From Escherichia coli (GTDB lineage Bacteria > Pseudomonadota > Gammaproteobacteria > Enterobacterales > Enterobacteriaceae), in the NCBI RefSeq assembly GCF_036507355.1, contig NZ_AP027877.1: a stretch of DNA of 64,000 bases. One strand, written 5' to 3'. Shown in pieces: positions 5,618 through 64,000 of this stretch. The translations under genes and the position numbers were made by a program. Positions within the stretch are counted from its first letter, which is position 1. Each line of letters begins with the position of its first letter. Below the pieces are notes generated by a model, which ran no database searches, was not told the DNA's origin, and saw only the letters and a list, made by a program, of their open reading frames with translations.

Positions 5618-5626
5618 CACCAATAA
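5618..5626. repeat. Left copy of IS1 target-site duplication (CACCAATAA)
   Basis: 9-bp sequence immediately left of the IS1 end, identical to 6395-6403. Confidence 0.9.
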
Positions 5627-5681
5627 GGTGATGCTGCCAACTTACTGATTTAGTGTATGATGGTGTTTTTGAGGTGCTCCA

Positions 5682-5957
5682 GTGGCTTCTGTTTCTATCA
5701 GCTGTCCCTCCTGTTCAGCTACTGACGGGGTGGTGCGTAACGGCAAAAGCACCGCCGGACATCAGCGCTATCTCTGCTCTCACTGCCGTAAAACATGGCA
5801 ACTGCAGTTCACTTACACCGCTTCTCAACCCGGTACGCACCAGAAAATCATTGATATGGCCATGAATGGCGTTGGATGCCGGGCAACAGCCCGCATTATG
5901 GGCATTGGCCTCAACACGATTTTACGTCACTTAAAAAACTCAGGCCGCAGTCGGTAA
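5682..5957 (+). CDS. insA: IS1 InsA (91 aa; GTG start)
   Basis: Track ORF 5682..5957; [40 protein letters not shown]... zinc-finger InsA. Confidence 0.9.
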
Positions 5958-6379
5958 CCTCGCGCATACAGCCGGGCAGTGACGTCATCGTCTGCGCGGA
6001 AATGGACGAACAGTGGGGCTATGTCGGGGCTAAATCGCGCCAGCGCTGGCTGTTTTACGCGTATGACAGGCTCCGGAAGACGGTTGTTGCGCACGTATTC
6101 GGTGAACGCACGATGGCGACGCTGGGGCGTCTTATGAGCCTGCTGTCACCCTTTGACGTGGTGATATGGATGACGGATGGCTGGCCGCTGTATGAATCCC
6201 GCCTGAAGGGAAAGCTGCACGTAATCAGCAAGCGATATACGCAGCGAATTGAGCGGCATAACCTGAATCTGAGGCAGCACCTGGCACGGCTGGGACGGAA
6301 GTCGCTGTCGTTCTCAAAATCGGTGGAGCTGCATGACAAAGTCATCGGGCATTATCTGAACATAAAACACTATCAATAA
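5876..6379 (+). CDS. insB: IS1 InsB reading frame (transposase made as InsAB' by -1 frameshift at the A6C motif near 5934-5940)
   Basis: Track ORF 5876..6379 in the -1 frame relative to insA; AAAAAAC slippery run in the overlap; C-terminal sequence typical of IS1 InsB. Confidence 0.85.
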
Positions 6380-6394
6380 GTTGGAGTCATTACC

Positions 6395-6403
6395 CACCAA
6401 TAA
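6395..6403. repeat. Right copy of IS1 target-site duplication (CACCAATAA)
   Basis: Identical 9-mer directly abutting the right IS1 end. Confidence 0.9.
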
Positions 6404-13903: not shown

Positions 13904-13936
13904 AAAAAAGGCACGTCAGATGACGTGCCTTTTTTC
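13904..13936 (+). terminator. Rho-independent terminator after aspA
   Basis: AAAAAAGGCACGTCAGATGACGTGCCTTTTTTC: perfect hairpin flanked by A and T runs. Confidence 0.75.
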
Positions 13937-14000
13937 TTGTGAGCAGTAACTTAAAAATAACAATCTAATATCAACTTGTTAAAAAACAAGGAAGGCTAAT

Positions 14001-15302
14001 ATGCTAGTTGTAGAACTCATCATAGTTTTGCTGGCGATCTTCTTGGGCGCCAGATTGGGGGGAATAGGTATTGGTTTTGCAGGCGGATTGGGGGTGCTGG
14101 TTCTTGCCGCTATTGGCGTTAAACCCGGTAACATCCCGTTCGATGTCATTTCCATTATCATGGCGGTTATCGCCGCTATTTCTGCCATGCAGGTTGCTGG
14201 CGGTCTGGACTATCTGGTTCATCAGACAGAAAAGCTGCTGCGCCGTAACCCGAAATACATCACGATCCTCGCACCGATCGTGACCTATTTCCTGACAATC
14301 TTTGCTGGTACTGGCAACATCTCTCTGGCGACACTGCCAGTTATCGCTGAAGTTGCGAAGGAACAAGGCGTTAAACCTTGCCGTCCGCTGTCTACTGCAG
14401 TGGTATCCGCGCAGATTGCGATCACCGCATCGCCAATCTCAGCGGCAGTGGTTTACATGTCTTCCGTGATGGAAGGTCATGGCATCAGCTACCTCCATCT
14501 GCTCTCCGTGGTCATCCCGTCCACCCTGCTGGCGGTTCTGGTGATGTCCTTCCTGGTCACTATGCTGTTCAACTCCAAACTCTCTGACGATCCGATTTAT
14601 CGCAAGCGTCTGGAAGAGGGCCTGGTTGAACTGCGCGGTGAAAAGCAGATTGAAATCAAATCCGGTGCAAAAACGTCCGTCTGGCTGTTCCTGCTGGGCG
14701 TAGTTGGCGTGGTTATCTATGCAATCATCAACAGCCCAAGCATGGGTCTGGTTGAAAAACCGCTGATGAACACCACCAACGCAATCCTGATCATCATGCT
14801 CAGCGTTGCAACTCTGACCACCGTTATCTGTAAAGTCGATACCGACAACATCCTCAACTCCAGCACCTTCAAAGCAGGTATGAGCGCCTGTATTTGTATC
14901 CTGGGTGTTGCGTGGCTGGGCGATACTTTCGTTTCCAACAACATCGACTGGATCAAAGATACCGCTGGTGAAGTGATTCAGGGTCATCCGTGGCTGCTGG
15001 CCGTCATCTTCTTCTTTGCTTCTGCTCTGCTGTACTCTCAGGCTGCAACCGCAAAAGCACTGATGCCGATGGCTCTGGCACTGAACGTTTCTCCGCTGAC
15101 CGCTGTTGCTTCTTTCGCTGCGGTGTCTGGTCTGTTCATTCTGCCGACCTACCCGACGCTGGTTGCTGCGGTACAGATGGATGACACGGGTACTACCCGT
15201 ATCGGTAAATTCGTCTTCAACCATCCGTTCTTCATCCCGGGTACTCTGGGTGTTGCCCTGGCCGTTTGCTTCGGCTTCGTGCTGGGTAGCTTCATGCTGT
15301 AA
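14001..15302 (+). CDS. dcuA: Anaerobic C4-dicarboxylate transporter DcuA (433 aa)
   Basis: Track ORF 14001..15302; MLVVELIIVLLAIFLGARLGGIGIGFAGGLGVLVLAAIGV...; paralogous to dcuB (32031..33371) in this window. Confidence 0.95.
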   Translation: MLVVELIIVLLAIFLGARLGGIGIGFAGGLGVLVLAAIGVKPGNIPFDVISIIMAVIAAISAMQVAGGLDYLVHQTEKLLRRNPKYITILAPIVTYFLTIFAGTGNISLATLPVIAEVAKEQGVKPCRPLSTAVVSAQIAITASPISAAVVYMSSVMEGHGISYLHLLSVVIPSTLLAVLVMSFLVTMLFNSKLSDDPIYRKRLEEGLVELRGEKQIEIKSGAKTSVWLFLLGVVGVVIYAIINSPSMGLVEKPLMNTTNAILIIMLSVATLTTVICKVDTDNILNSSTFKAGMSACICILGVAWLGDTFVSNNIDWIKDTAGEVIQGHPWLLAVIFFFASALLYSQAATAKALMPMALALNVSPLTAVASFAAVSGLFILPTYPTLVAAVQMDDTGTTRIGKFVFNHPFFIPGTLGVALAVCFGFVLGSFML

Positions 15303-15756: not shown

Positions 15757-17429
15757 TCCTGCTACTTTGCAGCACTTCCGTTTTTGCCGGATTATTCGAC
15801 GCGCCGGGACGTTCACAATTTGTCCCCGCGGATCAAGCCTTTACTTTTGATTTTCAGCAAAACCAACATGACCTTAATCTGACCTGGCAGATCAAAGACG
15901 GTTACTACCTCTACCGTAAACAGATCCGCATTACGCCGGAACACGCGAAAATTGCCGACGTGCAGCTTCCGCAAGGCGTCTGGCATGAAGATGAGTTTTA
16001 CGGCAAAAGCGAGATTTACCGCGATCGGCTGACGCTTCCCGTAACCATCAACCAGGCGAGTGCGGGAGCGACGTTAACTGTCACCTACCAGGGCTGTGCT
16101 GATGCCGGTTTCTGTTATCCGCCAGAAACCAAAACCGTTCCGTTAAGCGAAGTGGTCGCCAACAACGCAGCGTCACAGCCTGTGTCTGTTTCGCAGCAAG
16201 AGCAGCACACCGCGCAATTGCCCTTTTCCGCGCTCTGGGCGTTGTTGATCGGTATTGGTATCGCCTTTACGCCATGCGTGCTGCCAATGTACCCACTGAT
16301 TTCTGGCATCGTGCTGGGTGGTAAACAGCGGCTCTCCACTGCCAGAGCATTGTTGCTGACCTTTATTTATGTGCAGGGGATGGCACTGACTTACACGGCG
16401 CTGGGTCTGGTAGTTGCCGCCGCAGGGTTACAGTTCCAGGCGGCGCTACAGCACCCATACGTGCTCATTGGCCTCGCCATCGTCTTTACCTTGCTGGCGA
16501 TGTCAATGTTTGGCTTGTTTACTCTACAACTCCCCTCCTCGCTGCAAACGCGCCTCACGCTGATGAGCAATCGCCAACAGGGCGGCTCACCCGGCGGAGT
16601 GTTTATTATGGGGGCGATTGCCGGACTGATCTGTTCACCATGCACCACCGCACCGCTTAGCGCGATTCTGCTGTATATCGCCCAAAGCGGGAACATGTGG
16701 CTGGGCGGCGGCACGCTTTATCTCTATGCGTTGGGCATGGGCCTGCCGCTGATGCTAATTACCGTCTTTGGTAACCGCTTGCTGCCGAAAAGCGGCCCGT
16801 GGATGGAACAAGTCAAAACCGCGTTTGGTTTTGTGATCCTCGCACTGCCGGTCTTCCTGCTGGAGCGAGTGATTGGTGATATATGGGGATTACGCTTGTG
16901 GTCGGCGCTGGGTGTCGCATTCTTTGGCTGGGCCTTTATCACCAGCCTACAGACCAAACGCGGCTGGATGCGCGTGGTGCAAATAATCCTGCTGGCAGCG
17001 GCATTGGTTAGCGTGCGCCCACTTCAGGATTGGGCATTTGGTGCGACGCATACCGCGCAAACTCAGACGCATCTCAACTTTACACAAATCAAAACGGTAG
17101 ATGAGTTAAATCAGGCGCTCGTTGAAGCCAAAGGCAAACCGGTGATATTAGATCTTTATGCCGACTGGTGCGTCGCCTGTAAAGAGTTTGAGAAATACAC
17201 CTTCAGCGACCCGCAGGTGCAAAAAGCGTTAGCAGACACGGTCTTACTTCAGGCCAACGTCACGGCCAACGACGCACAAGATGTGGCGCTGTTAAAGCAT
17301 CTTAATGTCCTTGGCCTACCGACAATTCTCTTTTTTGACGGACAAGGCCAGGAGCATCCACAAGCACGCGTCACGGGCTTTATGGATGCTGAAACCTTCA
17401 GCGCACATTTGCGCGATCGCCAACCGTGA
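15732..17429 (+). CDS. dsbD: Thiol:disulfide interchange protein DsbD (565 aa)
   Basis: Within track ORF 15651..17429; start ATG 15732 ([20 protein letters not shown]...); C-terminal thioredoxin-like CVAC motif; overlaps the 3' end of cutA. Confidence 0.95.
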
Positions 17430-54392: not shown

Positions 54393-54545
<153 letters not shown>

Positions 54546-54607
54546 CCCCTCACCTGTACAAATTTCGAACTACACTTAACAGGCTTCTCTTCACTGAGGT
54601 CACCATC

Positions 54608-55051
54608 ATGCCGTTAAGTCCCTACATCTCTTTTGCCGGTAACTGTGCCGACGCGATTGCTTATTATCAACGCACATTGGGCGCGGAACTGCTCTATAAA
54701 ATCAGCTTCGGCGAAATGCCAAAATCAGCGCAGGACAGCGCCGAGAACTGCCCTTCCGGAATGCAATTTCCCGATACTGCCATCGCTCATGCCAACGTGC
54801 GTATTGCCGGAAGCGACATCATGATGAGCGATGCTATACCGTCAGGAAAAGCCAGCTACTCCGGTTTTACGCTGGTGCTCGATTCGCAACAGGTCGAAGA
54901 AGGAAAACGCTGGTTTGATAACCTTGCAGCTAACGGAAAAATCGAAATGGCCTGGCAGGAAACTTTCTGGGCGCATGGCTTCGGCAAAGTCACCGATAAA
55001 TTTGGCGTACCGTGGATGATTAATGTTGTCAAACAACAACCAACGCAATAA
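54608..55051 (+). CDS. phnB: Glyoxalase/bleomycin-resistance-fold protein PhnB/YjdN (147 aa)
   Basis: Within track ORF 54440..55051 (upstream part is REP read-through); start ATG 54608 (MPLSPYISFAGNCADAIAYYQRTLGAELLYK...). Confidence 0.9.
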   Translation: MPLSPYISFAGNCADAIAYYQRTLGAELLYKISFGEMPKSAQDSAENCPSGMQFPDTAIAHANVRIAGSDIMMSDAIPSGKASYSGFTLVLDSQQVEEGKRWFDNLAANGKIEMAWQETFWAHGFGKVTDKFGVPWMINVVKQQPTQ

Positions 55052-55106
55052 TCCGCCGGGAGGCCCGCCCTCCCGCACTGTCATCGAATTCCCGTTAACT
55101 CTTCAT

Positions 55107-55142
55107 CTGTTAGTCACTTTTAATTAACCAAATCGTCACAAT
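55107..55142 (+). promoter_or_regulatory. Putative Pho box (PhoB-binding site) of the phnC promoter
   Basis: CTGTTAGTCACTTTTAATTAACCAAATCGTCACAAT about 40-75 bp upstream of phnC, with CTGT/TCAC repeats resembling Pho-box half-sites. Confidence 0.5.
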
Positions 55143-55183
55143 AATCCGCCACGATGGAGCCACTTTTTTAGGGAGGCTCCAGC

Positions 55184-55972
55184 ATGCAAACGATTATCCG
55201 TGTCGAGAAGCTCGCCAAAACCTTCAATCAGCATCAGGCGCTGCATGCGGTTGATCTGAACATTCATCACGGTGAAATGGTGGCTCTGCTTGGGCCGTCG
55301 GGTTCCGGCAAATCCACCCTTTTACGTCACTTAAGCGGCCTGATTGTCGGCGATAAAAAACCAGAATGCCGCGTCGAACTGCTGGGCCGTACCGTCCAGC
55401 AAAATGGCCGTCTGGCCCGCGATATCCGCAAAAGCCGCGCCCATACCGGCTACATCTTCCAACAATTCAACCTGGTGAATCGCCTGAGCGTACTGGAGAA
55501 CGTGCTGATTGGCGCGCTCGGCAGCACGCCGTTCTGGCGCACCTGTTTTAGCTACTTCACCCGCGAGCAGAAACAGCGCGCGTTACAGGCGCTGACCCGC
55601 GTTGGCATGGTGCATTTTGCCCATCAACGCGTTTCCACCCTCTCCGGCGGCCAGCAGCAGCGTGTGGCGATTGCCCGCGCGCTGATGCAGCAGGCGAAAG
55701 TGATTCTCGCAGACGAACCGATCGCCTCGCTGGACCCGGAATCGGCGCGCATCGTGATGGACACCCTGCGCGACATCAACCAGAACGACGGCATCACCGT
55801 GGTCGTCACGCTGCATCAGGTGGATTACGCCCTGCGCTACTGCGAGCGCATCGTCGCCCTGCGTCAGGGGCACGTCTTCTACGACGGCAGCAGCCAACAG
55901 TTTGATAACGAACGTTTTGACCATCTCTACCGCAGCATTAACCGCGTCGAAGAGAACGCGAAAGCTGCCTGA
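55184..55972 (+). CDS. phnC: Phosphonate ABC transporter ATP-binding protein PhnC (262 aa)
   Basis: Track ORF 55184..55972; Walker [10 protein letters not shown], signature LSGGQQQR. Confidence 0.95.
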
Positions 55973-55996
55973 CATCCCCATCATTGAGGAAAACGA

Positions 55997-57013
55997 ATGA
56001 ACGCTAAGATAATTGCCTCGCTGGCCTTCACCAGCATGTTCAGCCTCAGCACCCTGTTTAGCCCGGCGCACGCCGAGGAGCAGGAAAAGGCGCTGAATTT
56101 CGGCATTATTTCAACGGAATCACAGCAAAACCTGAAACCGCAATGGACGCCGTTTTTACAGGATATGGAGAAGAAGCTGGGCGTGAAGGTCAACGCCTTC
56201 TTTGCCCCGGACTACGCGGGCATTATCCAGGGAATGCGTTTCAACAAAGTGGATATCGCCTGGTACGGCAACCTGTCGGCGATGGAAGCAGTGGATCGCG
56301 CCAACGGTCAGGTCTTCGCTCAGACCGTCGCGGCGGATGGATCGCCGGGTTACTGGAGCGTGTTAATCGTCAACAAAGACAGCCCGATCAACAACCTGAG
56401 CGATCTGCTGGCGAAGCGGAAAGATCTCACCTTCGGCAATGGCGATCCTAACTCCACCTCTGGCTTCCTCGTCCCCGGCTACTACGTCTTCGCCAAAAAC
56501 AATATCTCCGCCAGCGACTTCAAGCGCACCGTCAACGCCGGGTATGAAACCAACGCGCTGGCCGTCGCCAACAAGCAGGTGGATGTGGCGACCAACAACA
56601 CCGAAAACCTCGACAAGCTGAAAACCTCCGCACCGGACAAGCTCAAAGAACTGAAAGTGATCTGGAAGTCGCCGCTGATCCCAGGCGATCCGATCGTCTG
56701 GCGCAAGAATCTTTCCGAAACCACCAAAGACAAGATCTACGACTTCTTTATGAACTACGGCAAAACGCCGGAAGAAAAAGCGGTGCTGGAACGCCTGGGC
56801 TGGGCGCCGTTCCGCGCTTCCAGCGACCTGCAACTGGTGTCGATTCGCCAGCTCGCGCTGTTTAAAGAGATGCAGGGCGTGAAAAGCAATAAAGGACTGA
56901 ATGAGCAGGACAAGCTGGCAAAAACCACCGAGATTCAGGCGCAGCTGGATGACCTGGACCGCCTGAACAACGCGCTAAGCGCGATGAGTTCGGTGAGTAA
57001 AGCGGTGCAGTAA
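55997..57013 (+). CDS. phnD: Phosphonate ABC transporter periplasmic binding protein PhnD (338 aa)
   Basis: Track ORF 55997..57013; signal peptide then binding-protein fold. Confidence 0.95.
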   Translation: MNAKIIASLAFTSMFSLSTLFSPAHAEEQEKALNFGIISTESQQNLKPQWTPFLQDMEKKLGVKVNAFFAPDYAGIIQGMRFNKVDIAWYGNLSAMEAVDRANGQVFAQTVAADGSPGYWSVLIVNKDSPINNLSDLLAKRKDLTFGNGDPNSTSGFLVPGYYVFAKNNISASDFKRTVNAGYETNALAVANKQVDVATNNTENLDKLKTSAPDKLKELKVIWKSPLIPGDPIVWRKNLSETTKDKIYDFFMNYGKTPEEKAVLERLGWAPFRASSDLQLVSIRQLALFKEMQGVKSNKGLNEQDKLAKTTEIQAQLDDLDRLNNALSAMSSVSKAVQ

Positions 57014-57015
57014 AT

Positions 57016-57105
57016 CGTAGGTCGGATAAGACGCCCCGGCGTCGCATCCGACAATGTGCAGGCGTTGATGCCGGATGCGGTGCAAGCACCTTATCCGGCC
57101 TACAG
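57016..57105. repeat. REP/BIME element
   Basis: GTAGGTCGGATAAGACGCCCCGGCGTCGCATCCGACA ... GATGCCGGATGCGGTGCAAGCACCTTATCCGGCCTAC; boundaries approximate. Confidence 0.65.
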
Positions 57106-57118
57106 ACCGGAGCCAAAC

Positions 57119-57898
57119 ATGCAAACCATCACCATCGCCCCACCCAAGCGCAGCTGGTTCTCGCTTCTGAGCTGGGCCGTTGTTCTCGCCGTGTTGGTCG
57201 TCTCGTGGCAGGGCGCGGAAATGGCCCCGCTCACGCTGATTAAAGACGGCGGCAACATGGCGACTTTCGCCGCCGACTTCTTCCCGCCTGATTTCAGCCA
57301 GTGGCAGGATTACCTCACCGAAATGGCCGTCACGCTGCAAATCGCCGTCTGGGGCACCGCGCTGGCGGTGGTTCTCTCCATCCCCTTCGGCCTGATGAGC
57401 GCCGAAAACCTGGTGCCGTGGTGGGTTTACCAGCCCGTTCGCCGCCTGATGGACGCCTGCCGCGCCATTAACGAAATGGTCTTCGCCATGCTGTTCGTGG
57501 TCGCCGTCGGCCTCGGCCCGTTCGCTGGCGTGTTGGCGCTGTTTATCCACACCACCGGCGTGCTCTCCAAACTGCTTTCCGAAGCGGTGGAAGCGATTGA
57601 ACCCGGCCCGGTGGAAGGCATTCGCGCGACCGGCGCTAACAAGCTCGAAGAGATCCTCTACGGCGTGCTGCCGCAGGTGATGCCGCTGCTGATCTCCTAC
57701 TCCCTCTATCGCTTCGAATCCAACGTCCGCTCGGCGACCGTCGTCGGCATGGTCGGCGCGGGCGGGATCGGCGTCACGCTGTGGGAAGCGATTCGCGGTT
57801 TCCAGTTCCAGCAAACCTGCGCCCTGATGGTGCTCATCATCGTCACGGTCAGCCTGCTGGATTTCCTCTCTCAACGGTTGCGTAAGCACTTTATCTGA
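57119..57898 (+). CDS. phnE: Phosphonate ABC transporter permease PhnE, uninterrupted (259 aa)
   Basis: Within track ORF 57056..57898 (upstream part is REP read-through); start ATG 57119 ([28 protein letters not shown]...); continuous single frame. Confidence 0.9.
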
Positions 57899-57918
57899 TT
57901 AGCGAGGCATTGATAGCT

Positions 57919-58644
57919 ATGCACTTGTCTACACATCCGACCAGCTACCCAACACGCTATCAGGAGATAGCCGCAAAACTTGAGCAGGAGCTTCGTCAAC
58001 ACTACCGCTGCGGCGACTATCTTCCCGCCGAGCAGCAGCTGGCGGCGCGCTTTGAGGTAAACCGCCACACCCTGCGCCGCGCCATCGACCAACTGGTGGA
58101 AAAAGGCTGGGTACAGCGCCGTCAGGGCGTCGGCGTGCTGGTGCTGATGCGCCCGTTCGATTACCCGCTCAACGCCCAGGCGCGTTTTAGCCAGAATCTG
58201 CTGGATCAGGGCAGCCATCCCACCAGCGAAAAACTGCTGTCGGTGCTGCGCCCGGCGTCTGGTCACGTCGCTGACGCGCTGGGGATAACCGAGGGGGAGA
58301 ACGTCATCCACCTGCGCACCCTGCGCCGGGTCAACGGCGTCGCGCTCTGTTTAATCGACCACTACTTTGCGGACCTCACCCTCTGGCCGACGCTGCAACG
58401 CTTCGACAGCGGTTCGCTGCACGATTTTCTGCGCGAGCAAACGGGAATTGCGCTGCGCCGCAGCCAGACGCGGATCAGCGCCCGCCGCGCCCAAGCCAAA
58501 GAGTGCCAGCGCCTTGAAATCCCGAATATGTCGCCGCTGCTGTGCGTGCGCACCCTTAACCACCGTGACGGTGAAAGCAGCCCGGCGGAGTATTCCGTCA
58601 GCCTGACGCGCGCCGACATGATTGAATTCACTATGGAGCACTGA
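57919..58644 (+). CDS. phnF: GntR-family repressor PhnF (241 aa)
   Basis: Within track ORF 57910..58644; start placed at MHLSTHPTSYPTRYQEIAAKL...; N-terminal GntR HTH, UTRA-like C-domain. Confidence 0.93.
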   Translation: MHLSTHPTSYPTRYQEIAAKLEQELRQHYRCGDYLPAEQQLAARFEVNRHTLRRAIDQLVEKGWVQRRQGVGVLVLMRPFDYPLNAQARFSQNLLDQGSHPTSEKLLSVLRPASGHVADALGITEGENVIHLRTLRRVNGVALCLIDHYFADLTLWPTLQRFDSGSLHDFLREQTGIALRRSQTRISARRAQAKECQRLEIPNMSPLLCVRTLNHRDGESSPAEYSVSLTRADMIEFTMEH

Positions 58645-59097
58645 ATGCACGCAGATACCGCGACCCGCCAGCACTGGATGTCCGTGCTGGCGCACAGCCA
58701 ACCGACTGAGCTGGCAGCCCGCCTGAACGCGCTGAACATCACCGCCGACTATGAAGTGATCCGCACCGCCGAAACTGGTCTGGTGCAGATTCAGGCGCGG
58801 ATGGGCGGCACCGGCGAACGCTTTTTTGCCGGCGACGCCACGCTCACCCGCGCCGCCGTACGCCTGACTGACGGCACGCTCGGCTACAGCTGGGTGCTGG
58901 GGCGCGACAAACAGCACGCCGAACGCTGCGCGCTGATTGACGCGCTGATGCAGCAATCTCGCCACTTTCAAAACTTATCAGAAACTCTTATTGCCCCGCT
59001 GGACGCTGACCGTATGGCACGCATTGCCGCACGCCAGGCCGAAGTGAACGCCAGCCGGGTCGACTTCTTTACGATGGTTCGCGGAGACAACGCATGA
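58645..59097 (+). CDS. phnG: C-P lyase core complex subunit PhnG (150 aa)
   Basis: Track ORF 58645..59097; recognised PhnG sequence. Confidence 0.95.
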
Positions 59098-59678
59098 CCC
59101 TGGAAACCGCTTTTATGCTTCCCGTGCAGGATGCCCAGCACAGTTTTCGTCGCCTGTTAAAGGCCATGAGCGAGCCGGGCGTGATTGTCGCCCTGCATCA
59201 GCTCAAACGCGGCTGGCAGCCGCTGAATATCGCCACCACCAGCGTGCTGCTGACGCTGGCTGATAACGACACGCCGGTGTGGCTTGCCGCGCCATTAAGT
59301 AACGATATCGTCAGCCAGAGCCTGCGTTTTCATACCAACGCGCCGCTGGTCAATCAACCGGAACAGGCGACCTTCGCGGTGACGGATGAGACGATTTCCA
59401 GCGAACAGCTCAACGCCCTTTCCACCGGCACCGCCGTTGCGCCAGAAGCGGGCGCGACGCTGATTTTACAGGTCGCCAGCCTGAGCGGCGGGCGCATGTT
59501 GCGCCTCACCGGTGCGGGTATTGCCGAAGAACGAATGATCGCTCCGCAGCTGCCGGAGTGCATTTTGCACGAACTCACCGAGCGCCCGCACCCGTTCCCG
59601 CTCGGCATCGACCTGATCCTGACCTGCGGCGAGCGCCTGCTGGCTGTTCCGCGAACCACTCATGTGGAGGTGTGCTGA
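59094..59678 (+). CDS. phnH: C-P lyase core complex subunit PhnH (194 aa)
   Basis: Track ORF 59094..59678; 4-bp overlap with phnG. Confidence 0.95.
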
Positions 59679-60742
59679 TGTACGTTGCCGTGAAAGGGGG
59701 CGAGAAGGCGATCGACGCCGCCCACGCCCTGCAAGAGAGCCGACGCCGGGGCGATACCGATTTGCCCGAACTGAGCGTCGCCCAGATTGAACAGCAGCTT
59801 AACCTCGCGGTAGATCGCGTGATGACCGAAGGCGGCATTGCCGACCGCGAACTGGCGGCGCTGGCGCTGAAACAGGCCAGCGGCGATAACGTCGAAGCGA
59901 TTTTTCTGCTGCGCGCCTACCGCACCACGCTGGCGAAGCTGGCGGTGAGCGAACCGCTCGACACCACCGGGATGCGTCTCGAACGGCGTATCTCCGCTGT
60001 TTATAAAGATATTCCCGGCGGCCAACTGCTTGGCCCAACCTACGACTACACCCATCGCCTGCTCGATTTCACCCTGCTGGCAAACGGCGAAGCGCCAACG
60101 CTGACCACCGCCGACAGCGAACAACAGCCGTCGCCGCACGTTTTCAGCCTGCTTGCGCGTCAGGGGCTGGCGAAGTTTGAAGAGGATAGCGGCGCACAGC
60201 CGGATGACATCACCCGCACGCCGCCGGTTTACCCCTGCTCACGTTCTTCCCGTTTGCAGCAGTTGATGCGCGGCGACGAAGGCTATTTGCTGGCGCTGGC
60301 CTACTCCACCCAACGCGGTTACGGGCGCAATCACCCGTTCGCGGGTGAAATCCGCAGTGGTTACATCGACGTGTCGATTGTGCCGGAAGAGCTGGGATTT
60401 GCGGTAAACGTCGGCGAACTGCTGATGACCGAGTGTGAAATGGTCAACGGTTTTATCGATCCGCCGGATGAACCACCGCATTTTACACGCGGCTACGGGC
60501 TGGTGTTCGGCATGAGCGAGCGCAAAGCGATGGCAATGGCGCTAGTCGATCGTGCGTTGCAGGCCCCGGAGTACGGCGAGCACGCGACAGGCCCGGCGCA
60601 GGATGAAGAGTTCGTGCTGGCGCATGCCGACAACGTCGAAGCCGCAGGCTTTGTCTCGCACCTCAAACTCCCGCACTACGTCGATTTCCAGGCCGAACTG
60701 GAGCTACTCAAACGTCTGCAACAGGAGCAGAACCATGGCTAA
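59678..60742 (+). CDS. phnI: C-P lyase core complex subunit PhnI (354 aa)
   Basis: Within track ORF 59558..60742; start ATG 59678 ([32 protein letters not shown]...); 1-bp overlap with the phnH stop. Confidence 0.95.
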   Translation: MYVAVKGGEKAIDAAHALQESRRRGDTDLPELSVAQIEQQLNLAVDRVMTEGGIADRELAALALKQASGDNVEAIFLLRAYRTTLAKLAVSEPLDTTGMRLERRISAVYKDIPGGQLLGPTYDYTHRLLDFTLLANGEAPTLTTADSEQQPSPHVFSLLARQGLAKFEEDSGAQPDDITRTPPVYPCSRSSRLQQLMRGDEGYLLALAYSTQRGYGRNHPFAGEIRSGYIDVSIVPEELGFAVNVGELLMTECEMVNGFIDPPDEPPHFTRGYGLVFGMSERKAMAMALVDRALQAPEYGEHATGPAQDEEFVLAHADNVEAAGFVSHLKLPHYVDFQAELELLKRLQQEQNHG

Positions 60743-61580
60743 TCTGAGCGGCTACAACTTTGCCTACCTCGACGAGCAGACCAAACGCATGATCCGCCGC
60801 GCCATCTTAAAAGCGGTGGCGATCCCCGGTTATCAGGTGCCGTTTGGCGGGCGCGAGATGCCGATGCCGTACGGCTGGGGAACCGGCGGCATACAGCTTA
60901 CCGCCAGCGTGATTGGCGAAAGCGACGTACTGAAGGTGATTGACCAGGGAGCGGATGACACCACCAACGCCGTGTCGATTCGCAACTTCTTCAAGCGCGT
61001 GACCGGGGTAAACACCACGGAACGTACGGACGATGCGACGGTTATCCAGACGCGTCACCGCATCCCCGAAACGCCGCTGACCGAAGATCAGATCATTATT
61101 TTCCAGGTGCCGATCCCCGAACCGCTGCGCTTTATCGAGCCGCGCGAAACGGAAACCCGCACCATGCACGCGCTGGAGGAGTACGGCGTGATGCAGGTGA
61201 AACTGTATGAAGATATCGCCCGCTTCGGTCATATCGCCACCACCTACGCCTATCCGGTGAAGGTGAACGGGCGCTACGTGATGGACCCGTCGCCGATCCC
61301 GAAATTCGATAACCCGAAAATGGACATGATGCCTGCCCTGCAGCTGTTCGGCGCGGGGCGCGAAAAGCGCATCTATGCGGTGCCACCGTTTACCCGCGTT
61401 GAAAGTCTCGATTTCGAGGATCACCCGTTCACCGTTCAGCAGTGGGATGAGCCATGCGCCATCTGCGGATCGACCCACAGCTATCTCGATGAAGTGGTGC
61501 TGGATGACGCCGGAAACCGCATGTTTGTCTGCTCCGATACCGATTATTGCCGCCAACAGAGCGAGGCAAAAAGCCAATGA
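60735..61580 (+). CDS. phnJ: Alpha-D-ribose 1-methylphosphonate 5-phosphate C-P lyase PhnJ (281 aa)
   Basis: Within track ORF 60552..61580; start ATG 60735 (MANLSGYNFAYLDEQTKRMIRRAILKAVAIPGYQVPFGGREMPMPYGWGTGG...); C-terminal Cys cluster CAICGS...CSDTDYC for the 4Fe-4S site. Confidence 0.95.
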   Translation: MANLSGYNFAYLDEQTKRMIRRAILKAVAIPGYQVPFGGREMPMPYGWGTGGIQLTASVIGESDVLKVIDQGADDTTNAVSIRNFFKRVTGVNTTERTDDATVIQTRHRIPETPLTEDQIIIFQVPIPEPLRFIEPRETETRTMHALEEYGVMQVKLYEDIARFGHIATTYAYPVKVNGRYVMDPSPIPKFDNPKMDMMPALQLFGAGREKRIYAVPPFTRVESLDFEDHPFTVQQWDEPCAICGSTHSYLDEVVLDDAGNRMFVCSDTDYCRQQSEAKSQ

Positions 61581-62335
61581 ATCAACCGTTACTTTCGGTC
61601 AATAACCTGACCCACCTTTACGCGCCGGGCAAAGGCTTTAGCGATGTCTCTTTTGATTTATGGCCGGGGGAAGTGCTGGGCATTGTCGGGGAGTCCGGCT
61701 CCGGGAAGACCACGCTGCTGAAATCAATCTCCGCGCGCCTGACGCCGCAGCAGGGGGAAATTCACTACGAGAACCGTTCGCTGTATGCAATGAGCGAGGC
61801 CGACCGCCGTCGCCTGCTGCGCACCGAATGGGGCGTGGTGCATCAGCATCCGCTCGACGGCCTGCGCCGCCAGGTCTCAGCAGGCGGCAACATCGGCGAG
61901 CGGCTGATGGCGACCGGGGCGCGTCATTACGGCGATATTCGCGCCACCGCGCAGAAGTGGCTGGAAGAGGTGGAAATTCCCGCCAACCGGATCGACGACC
62001 TGCCGACCACCTTTTCCGGCGGCATGCAGCAACGTTTGCAGATTGCCCGCAACCTGGTGACGCATCCGAAGCTGGTATTTATGGACGAGCCAACCGGCGG
62101 GCTGGATGTGTCGGTGCAGGCCCGCCTGCTCGACCTGCTGCGCGGCCTGGTGGTGGAGCTGAACCTGGCGGTGGTTATTGTCACCCATGATTTAGGCGTC
62201 GCCCGCCTGCTGGCGGACCGTTTGCTGGTGATGAAGCAGGGGCAAGTGGTGGAGAGTGGGTTAACCGACCGCGTGCTCGACGACCCGCATCATCCGTATA
62301 CACAGCTGCTGGTGTCATCGGTTTTGCAGAATTGA
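61577..62335 (+). CDS. phnK: C-P lyase-associated ATP-binding protein PhnK (252 aa)
   Basis: Within track ORF 61547..62335; start ATG 61577 ([15 protein letters not shown]...); Walker [10 protein letters not shown]. Confidence 0.95.
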
Positions 62336-62338
62336 GCC

Positions 62339-62425
62339 GGTGCCGGATGCGGCGTAAACGCCTTATCCTGCCTACAAATGCGCTCCCCGTAGGTCGGATA
62401 AGACGCGTCAGCGTCGCATCCGACA
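62339..62425. repeat. REP/BIME element
   Basis: GCCGGATGCGGCGTAAACGCCTTATCCTGCCTAC ... GTAGGTCGGATAAGACGCGTCAGCGTCGCATCCGACA; boundaries approximate. Confidence 0.65.
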
Positions 62426-62445
62426 CCCGAACCACGAGGCGAAAA

Positions 62446-63126
62446 ATGATTAACGTACAAAACGTCAGTAAAACCTTCATCCTGCACCAGCAAAACGGCG
62501 TGCGCCTGCCCGTCCTCAACCGCGCCTCGCTCACCGTCAACGCGGGCGAATGCGTGGTGCTCCACGGCCATTCCGGCAGCGGAAAATCAACCCTGCTACG
62601 CTCGCTGTACGCCAACTATCTGCCCGACGAAGGGCAAATCCAGATCAAACACGGTGACGAATGGGTCGATCTGGTCACCGCGCCAGCGCGCAAAGTGGTG
62701 GAGATCCGCAAAACCACCGTTGGCTGGGTGAGCCAGTTTCTGCGCGTCATCCCGCGCATTTCGGCGCTGGAAGTGGTGATGCAGCCGCTACTCGATACCG
62801 GCGTACCACGTGAAGCCTGCGCCGCTAAAGCCGCGCGTCTTCTCACCCGCCTGAACGTGCCGGAACGCCTGTGGCACCTGGCTCCATCGACCTTCTCCGG
62901 CGGCGAACAGCAGCGCGTCAACATCGCCCGCGGCTTTATCGTCGACTACCCCATTCTGCTGCTCGACGAACCTACCGCCTCGCTGGACGCCAAAAACAGC
63001 GCCGCGGTGGTGGAACTGATTCACGAAGCCAAAGCCCGTGGCGCAGCCATTGTCGGCATCTTCCATGACGAAGCCGTACGTAATGACGTTGCCGACCGCC
63101 TGCACCCAATGGGAGCCTCTTCATGA
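62446..63126 (+). CDS. phnL: C-P lyase-associated ATP-binding protein PhnL (226 aa)
   Basis: Within track ORF 62332..63126 (upstream part is REP read-through); start ATG 62446 ([25 protein letters not shown]...); Walker [10 protein letters not shown]. Confidence 0.95.
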
Positions 63127-64000
63127 TTATCAATAACGTCAAATTGGTGCTGGAAAACGAAGTGGTACACGGTTCACTGGAGGTGCAGGACGGCGAAATC
63201 CGCGCCTTTGCCGAAAGCCAGAGCCGCCTGCCGGAGGCGATGGACGGCGAAGGCGGCTGGCTGCTGCCGGGGCTGATTGAGCTGCATACCGATAATCTGG
63301 ATAAATTCTTCACCCCGCGCCCGAAAGTTGACTGGCCTGCCCACTCGGCGATGAGCAGCCACGACGCGCTGATGGTGGCGAGCGGCATCACCACCGTACT
63401 GGATGCCGTGGCAATTGGCGACGTGCGCGACGGCGGCGATCGGCTGGAGAATCTTGAGAAGATGATCAACGCCATCGAAGAGACGCAGAAACGCGGCGTC
63501 AACCGCGCCGAGCACCGTCTACACCTGCGCTGCGAACTGCCGCATCACACCACGCTGCCGCTGTTTGAAAAACTGGTGCAGCGCGAGCCGGTGACGCTGG
63601 TGTCGCTGATGGACCACTCGCCGGGCCAGCGCCAGTTCGCCAATCGCGAGAAGTATCGCGAATATTATCAGGGTAAATACTCGCTCACTGATGCGCAGAT
63701 GCAGCAGTACGAAGAAGAGCAACTGGCGCTCGCCGCACGCTGGTCGCAGCCGAATCGCGAATCCATCGCCGCCCTGTGCCGCGCGCGACACATTGCGCTT
63801 GCCAGCCACGATGACGCCACCCACGCCCACGTTGCCGAATCCCACCAGCTTGGCAGCGTGATCGCCGAATTTCCCACCACGTTCGAAGCGGCAGAAGCCT
63901 CGCGCAAGCATGGCATGAACGTGTTGATGGGCGCGCCGAATATCGTGCGCGGCGGTTCGCACTCCGGCAACGTGGCGGCCAGTGAACTGGCACAGCTTGG
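63123..64000 (+). CDS. phnM: Ribosyl-triphosphate diphosphohydrolase PhnM, N-terminal part (continues beyond window end)
   Basis: ATG 63123 overlaps the phnL stop (ATGA); [63 protein letters not shown]... amidohydrolase-family N-terminus; no stop before 64000. Confidence 0.93.

Follow-up and report, generated by a model that had tools for sequence, protein, structure and literature searches.

The closest described counterparts of the locus considered here are the cryptic phnE of Escherichia coli K-12 MG1655 and the Phn+ alleles of the same gene. In MG1655, the phnE site contains three 8-bp units (TTC GCTGGCGT GCTGGCGT GCTGGCGC TG), the reading frame as it stands diverges after codon 140 and runs into stops, and the gene is annotated as pseudogene b4583. 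Two-unit Phn+ alleles at this site are known from E. coli B and from K-12 Phn+ revertants (Makino et al. 1991; Stasi et al. 2019, PMC6469041). In one K-12 phnE+ revertant, an 8-bp deletion, 5'-GCTGGCGT, maps to ORF positions 407-414 (PMC6469041). The third unit of K-12 truncates PhnE and thereby blocks delivery of the substrate to the permease.

The binding protein of the same importer, PhnD, has been characterized structurally together with its relatives. PMC5700983 calls the PhnD H157A protein "locked in an open conformation" and names the corresponding histidine as a conserved ligand in both Te_PtxB (H160) and Pm_PhnD (H158); E. coli PhnD shares with Te_PtxB the residues that contact the ligand oxygens. 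In solved relatives, this histidine forms hydrogen bonds to those oxygens. For wild-type PhnD, binding of 2-aminoethylphosphonate is reported to be in the low-nanomolar range (PMC5700983). In Synechococcus PhnD1, the equivalent H156 is among the phosphate ligands (PMC10284923).

Here we compare these systems with the phn genes on a 64,000-nt stretch of E. coli DNA (the window). The window shares with cryptic MG1655 phnE the same locus, flanks, REP spacer and phnC–phnM gene order. Taken together, the evidence makes it very probable that phnE here is an ordinary two-unit allele, that the other phn frames in the window are intact and that the weak point of the system is an H157Y substitution in PhnD.

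phnE encodes a full-length permease

The window phnE extends from an ATG at 57119 to a TGA ending at 57898 (780 nt), without internal stops and with GGAG 8 nt 5' of the start codon. Its product matched the NCBIfam equivalog TIGR01097 with 311.5 bits (cutoff, 216.7) over residues 16-258 of 259 and Pfam BPD_transp_1 (PF00528) with 91.8 bits over residues 88-258, and a 19-residue Kyte–Doolittle hydropathy scan at a strict threshold gave four strongly hydrophobic regions. The gene lies 3' of phnC (ATPase) and phnD (binding protein) and 5' of the C–P lyase genes, in the order phnC-D-E-F-G-H-I-J-K-L-M. As judged from these matches and this context, phnE is the gene for the permease of the PhnCDE phosphonate/phosphate ABC importer, with transport as its predicted function. 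The original prediction of a single 259-codon frame with permease character is thus borne out.

A longer phnE starting at GTG 57056 (280 aa) was dropped in favor of the ATG because the extension falls inside the REP element, GGAG precedes the ATG and the RefSeq annotation of the closest complete genome has the 780-nt form. An antisense ORF of 304 aa over phnE (56975-57889, minus strand) had no Pfam match and was not considered a gene; its translation is rich in Arg, Gly, His and Asp, a composition typically obtained when the complementary strand of a GC-rich gene is translated.

Alignment with MG1655 located the repeat site within phnE (Table 1), at a position that agrees with the deletion published for the revertant (PMC6469041). 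The window has two units at this site, TTC GCTGGCGT GTTGGCGC TG, instead of the three tandem units and resulting frameshift that characterize the cryptic phn(EcoK) allele, so the K-12 8-bp duplication is absent, as had been proposed. The extra GCTGGCGT of K-12 is the only length difference between the two genes. Removal of one unit from K-12 phnE gives a 259-aa protein that is 100% identical to the window PhnE, and the 18 nucleotide differences between the two genes are all silent. No further indels relative to the repaired K-12 PhnE were seen in the alignment. Because the third unit is missing, the window encodes a full-length permease.

The window differs from repaired K-12 in its second unit only by a CTG>TTG change. 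This silent C>T (Leu) breaks the perfect tandem repeat, and no direct repeat was reported at the phnE site of the window in a search with a 6-nt seed and a 7-nt minimum. With the repeat imperfect, slippage to the "off" state should be rarer in the TTG allele.

Table 1 Positions of phn genes and associated features in the window
Feature	Position	Strand	Match or remark
Likely Pho-box region of the phnC promoter, CTGTTAGTCAC TTTTAATTAAC CAAATCGTCAC	55107..55139	+	Identical to MG1655
phnC, ABC ATPase of phosphonate importer, 262 aa	55184..55972	+	NCBIfam NF007438, 595 bits, full length
phnD, periplasmic phosphonate-binding protein, 338-aa precursor	55997..57013	+	TIGR03431, 369 bits; PF12974, 264.6 bits
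phnD codon 183, TAT (Tyr)	56543..56545	+	K-12 and L005 (draft GCA_905398585.1) encode His (CAT)
REP/BIME-type element, phnD–phnE spacer	57020..57100	-	Rfam naRNA4 RF02564, 69.1 bits (gathering threshold, 59.5)
phnE, membrane permease of phosphonate ABC importer	57119..57898	+	259 codons, uninterrupted
8-bp repeat site, two units, GCTGGCGT GTTGGCGC	57524..57539 (phnE ORF nt 406-421)	+	MG1655 alignment
phnF, GntR-family regulator, 241 aa	57919..58644	+	NF007486, 518.6 bits; protein identical to K-12
phnG, C–P lyase core subunit	58645-59097	+	TIGR03293, TIGR03292 and PF05861 matches across phnG-I
phnH, C–P lyase core subunit	59094-59678	+	TIGR03293, TIGR03292 and PF05861 matches across phnG-I
phnI, C–P lyase core subunit	59678-60742	+	TIGR03293, TIGR03292 and PF05861 matches across phnG-I
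phnJ	60735-61580	+	PF06007, 502 bits
phnK	61577-62335	+	TIGR02323, 412 bits; protein identical to K-12
phnL, 226 aa	62446..63126	+	TIGR02324, 369.8 bits
phnM, first 292 of 378 codons	63123..64000	+	Open up to window end

Two repeat units are the majority state in E. coli

The number of units at the phnE site was surveyed by searching 5,426 complete E. coli genomes with 93-101-nt probes; 5,337 records contained the segment. The three-unit K-12 allele was represented by 1,001 exact and 8 near matches (~19%), a share that overstates its natural frequency because many of the records are K-12 laboratory derivatives. The two-unit state, recognized by alignment of the three-unit probe with an 8-nt gap, accounted for ~4,330 records (~81%); as for the three-unit figure, this count was derived from the identity bands into which short BLAST queries fell. 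Two-unit probes gave the mirror image, with three-unit genomes aligning with an 8-nt gap. The two-unit phnE is thus the common, and presumably the ancestral, condition of E. coli, and an intact phnE is already known, ordinary biology. The TTG variant, in which the second unit is GTTGGCGC, was present in 58 of the 5,426 complete genomes (about 1%) from several lineages, including O145:H28; these carriers are few and largely clonal.

The original prediction allowed that the strain might be a revertant. This would make phnE a recent product of phase variation, in which slipped-strand mispairing turned a three-unit "off" allele back into a two-unit one, and K-12 is indeed known to switch reversibly between two and three units (Makino et al. 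1991; Iqbal et al. 2004; both as cited in PMC6469041), with three units present in about one-fifth of the complete genomes. We nevertheless regard recent reversion as highly improbable. With two units being the majority state, reversion is not the natural reading to begin with, and the imperfect repeat of the window is a poor substrate for slippage. The occurrence of the same two-unit TTG allele in 58 complete genomes, among them O145:H28 and other lineages, and in a near-identical draft (L005, described below) shows that it was inherited. The main use of the phnE observation is to mark the strain and to check the annotation: it sets the window apart from K-12 and places its phnE in the condition common to most E. 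coli.

In E. coli VR50 (NZ_CP011134.1, 4664994-4665102), the 93-nt two-unit probe spanned 109 nt, as would four 8-bp units. The VR50 phnE thus appears to be a four-unit gene, which would make it a second kind of out-of-frame allele.

The other phn frames are open and their promoter region is conserved

The remaining phn genes were also intact, as had been proposed. phnC, phnD and phnF through phnL each begin with ATG, match their K-12 counterparts in length and contain no internal stop, and all 292 codons of phnM that lie in the window are open; the last 86 of its 378 codons, together with phnN, phnO and phnP, fall beyond the window end. PhnJ has two substitutions relative to K-12 (D228E and N280S). 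The tight or overlapping junctions noted earlier hold for most gene pairs (-8 to +24 nt) but not for phnD–phnE (105 nt) and phnK–phnL (110 nt). The phnD–phnE spacer is identical to that of MG1655, and the phnK–phnL gap is as long as that of K-12 and, as read from ORF translations, carries REP-like sequence.

Upstream of phnC, we take 55107-55139 to be the Pho box, after Makino et al. 1991. A 161-nt alignment of the upstream region showed three differences from K-12, none of them in this segment. With the frames intact and the promoter region conserved, expression under phosphate starvation and C–P lyase capacity would be expected.

PhnC has the same length as its K-12 counterpart and 11 amino-acid differences from it, nine of which fall within residues 55-74. 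In this patch (codons 55-74 at 55346-55405, 3' of Walker A), the K-12 segment TGDKSVGSHI...RE is replaced by one ending in ...QN. We considered whether the patch could be a defect and rejected this: the exact PhnC protein of the window is widespread, occurring in 40 blocks of the public collection, the NF007438 match is full length, and on visual inspection the protein has its Walker A, Q-loop, signature, Walker B and H-loop motifs, with the patch lying outside them. It looks like a common mosaic allele.

PhnD carries a substitution at the ligand-binding histidine

The window PhnD aligns to PDB 3P7I and has five amino-acid differences from K-12, including H183Y. The substitution results from a T at 56543 (C>T) and corresponds to H157Y in mature numbering, after removal of the 26-residue signal peptide. 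We take the ligand contacts of PhnD, after Alicea et al. 2011, to be Y47, Y93, S127, T128, S129, H157, E177 and D205 (mature numbering). Seven of the eight (Y47, Y93, S127, T128, S129, E177 and D205) are conserved in the window protein and H157 is replaced by Tyr, so that a ligand-competent set, with all eight contacts kept as in 3P7I, is lacking at this one residue. PDB 3S4U, the structure of H157A E. coli PhnD, differs from wild-type 3P7I at the very position of the Tyr in the window; the same residue is substituted in both, with Ala introduced deliberately in 3S4U and Tyr found in the window. H157A was reportedly engineered by Alicea et al. 2011 to obtain open, unliganded PhnD. The roles of H157, E177 and D205 as ligand-contact residues are borne out in PMC5700983.

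The position is invariant among the homologs examined. Of the 119 homolog cluster representatives spanning it (79-99% identity), all 119 have His, as do four wild-type family members in the PDB: PhnD of E. coli, PhnD of P. aeruginosa, PtxB and 9LF9. A 91-nt phnD segment with the T had no exact match in the complete E. coli genomes (~5,400), compared to 2,029 for the version with C. The exact PhnD protein of the window had no record in the gene-position index, and a literature search for PhnD His157 by that name found no papers.

Type I ABC importers need a ligand-loaded, closed binding protein, and for this reason we lean, if narrowly, toward phosphonate uptake that is weakened or lost with the bulky H157Y substitution in PhnD rather than fully normal. 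Some function may be left, since Tyr is still able to act as a hydrogen-bond donor, and growth on millimolar phosphonate could stay positive with a low-affinity PhnD. If characterized, H157Y would provide one natural data point on the role of the histidine in ligand capture in the PhnD/PtxB family.

The substitution might also be a real, selected loss or retuning of PhnD, for example under a toxic phosphonate such as fosfomycin, and inactivation of phnCDE has been associated with a fitness gain under fosfomycin (TraDIS preprint, bioRxiv 10.1101/2019.12.23.887760). We consider such selection improbable. Had H157Y been selected, it would have been in a phnE background in which the repeat is degraded by the silent C>T and the slippage route to switching uptake off would be less available.

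Close relatives share phnE but not always an intact operon

A near-identical relative of the window is the draft GCA_905398585.1 (L005), with two mismatches in 18,817 nt (99.989% identity): the phnD T at 56543 and a silent change in basS. In this draft, phnM, phnN and phnO are intact, and phnP is intact over the 244 of 252 codons present. Over the last 20 kb of the window, no complete E. coli genome exceeded about 98.1% identity.

Among complete genomes, the closest phnE (99.5%) was that of O145:H28 strains such as RM9872, which share the two-unit TTG allele and the gene order of the window. Their PhnD keeps His157, whereas that of the window has Tyr, and their phnM has an in-frame 414-bp deletion of K-12 codons about 151-288 that is absent from the window. 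In RM9872 (L002, 14005-14727), phnM is 723 bp and the deletion lies between short direct repeats. A further locus, L003 (GCA_002972135.1), has the PhnC protein of the window and an intact phnE. Its phnH is called in two pieces of 133 and 57 aa (13911-14555), as is its phnK, in pieces of 89 and 142 aa (16454-17212); neither split is present in the window. Given the phnM deletion of O145:H28 and the split phnH and phnK of L003, an intact phnE does not imply an intact operon. Phosphonate use requires an intact phnE but is not ensured by it, with the risk residing in one PhnD missense change in the window and in a phnM deletion or split phnH and phnK in related strains.

Proposed pathway and alternative readings

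When cells are starved of phosphate, the phnC promoter is switched on by PhoB. In the window, the conserved promoter region is consistent with this first step. Periplasmic PhnD would then capture the phosphonate, in a pocket that is conserved except for the changed His157, and deliver it to the PhnE permease, with import powered by PhnC; the genes for both are intact, and the K-12 block at the permease is absent. PhnG-M, the C–P lyase pathway, would finally convert the phosphonate to phosphate and an alkane, a function presumed from intact frames. Capture by PhnD is the likeliest weak step.

The original prediction had gone from an intact phnE to a likely functional uptake and C–P lyase operon and hence to a Phn+ strain. 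The part that concerns the frames stood, and the promoter region adds to it; the step to function is qualified by the private H183Y substitution in PhnD and by the end of phnM and phnN-P lying outside the window. Because H157Y affects a ligand-binding histidine, a Phn+ phenotype does not follow from an intact phnE. A whole system that is functional, with H157Y tolerated, is possible but on balance unlikely in our estimate. It would fit the open frames, the in-frame phnE and the conserved promoter region, as well as the other seven contact residues, which are unchanged; Tyr would still be a hydrogen-bond donor, and the near-identical L005 has intact phnM, phnN, phnO and, as far as present, phnP. 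Weighing against tolerance are the invariance of His157 in all cluster representatives and in distant solved relatives, and the locking of PhnD in an open state by H157A (PMC5700983). The lack of the Tyr allele in the ~5,400 complete genomes likewise fits a recent, possibly deleterious change.

That same rarity could be explained if the T at 56543 were a sequencing or assembly error and the strain were an ordinary Phn+ E. coli encoding His157, given that the T is unique among all sequences examined and is one of only two differences from L005 over 18.8 kb. The context, GGG TAT GAA, however, is neither a homopolymer nor otherwise error prone, no class of genuine mutation is commoner than the C>T transition, and the other mismatch to L005 is an unremarkable silent change in basS. 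We therefore judge an error to be distinctly unlikely and retain a genuine H157Y in PhnD, next to an ordinary two-unit phnE, as the preferred reading.

Divergence of the window from MG1655

The phn region of the window (54487-64000) is 96.65% identical to MG1655, in agreement with the earlier suggestion that the DNA is not from that strain. The 48 kb upstream (6395-54487) is 98.87% identical, and the identity changes at the REP cluster between yjdM and yjdN, which suggests either a boundary left by recombination or a divergent phn haplotype of long standing. The yjdM–yjdN spacer has a single unit of naRNA4, a REP-derived nucleoid-associated RNA, in the window (Rfam match at 54398-54474, plus strand), whereas that of MG1655 is ~432 bp longer, with further naRNA4-like units of ~100 bp, and several units are present in the comparison locus L006.

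The window also contains a 768-bp IS1 at 5627-6394, in the yjeJ–epmB intergenic region, which is absent from MG1655. It is flanked by a 9-bp direct duplication, CACCAATAA, at 5618-5626 and 6395-6403.
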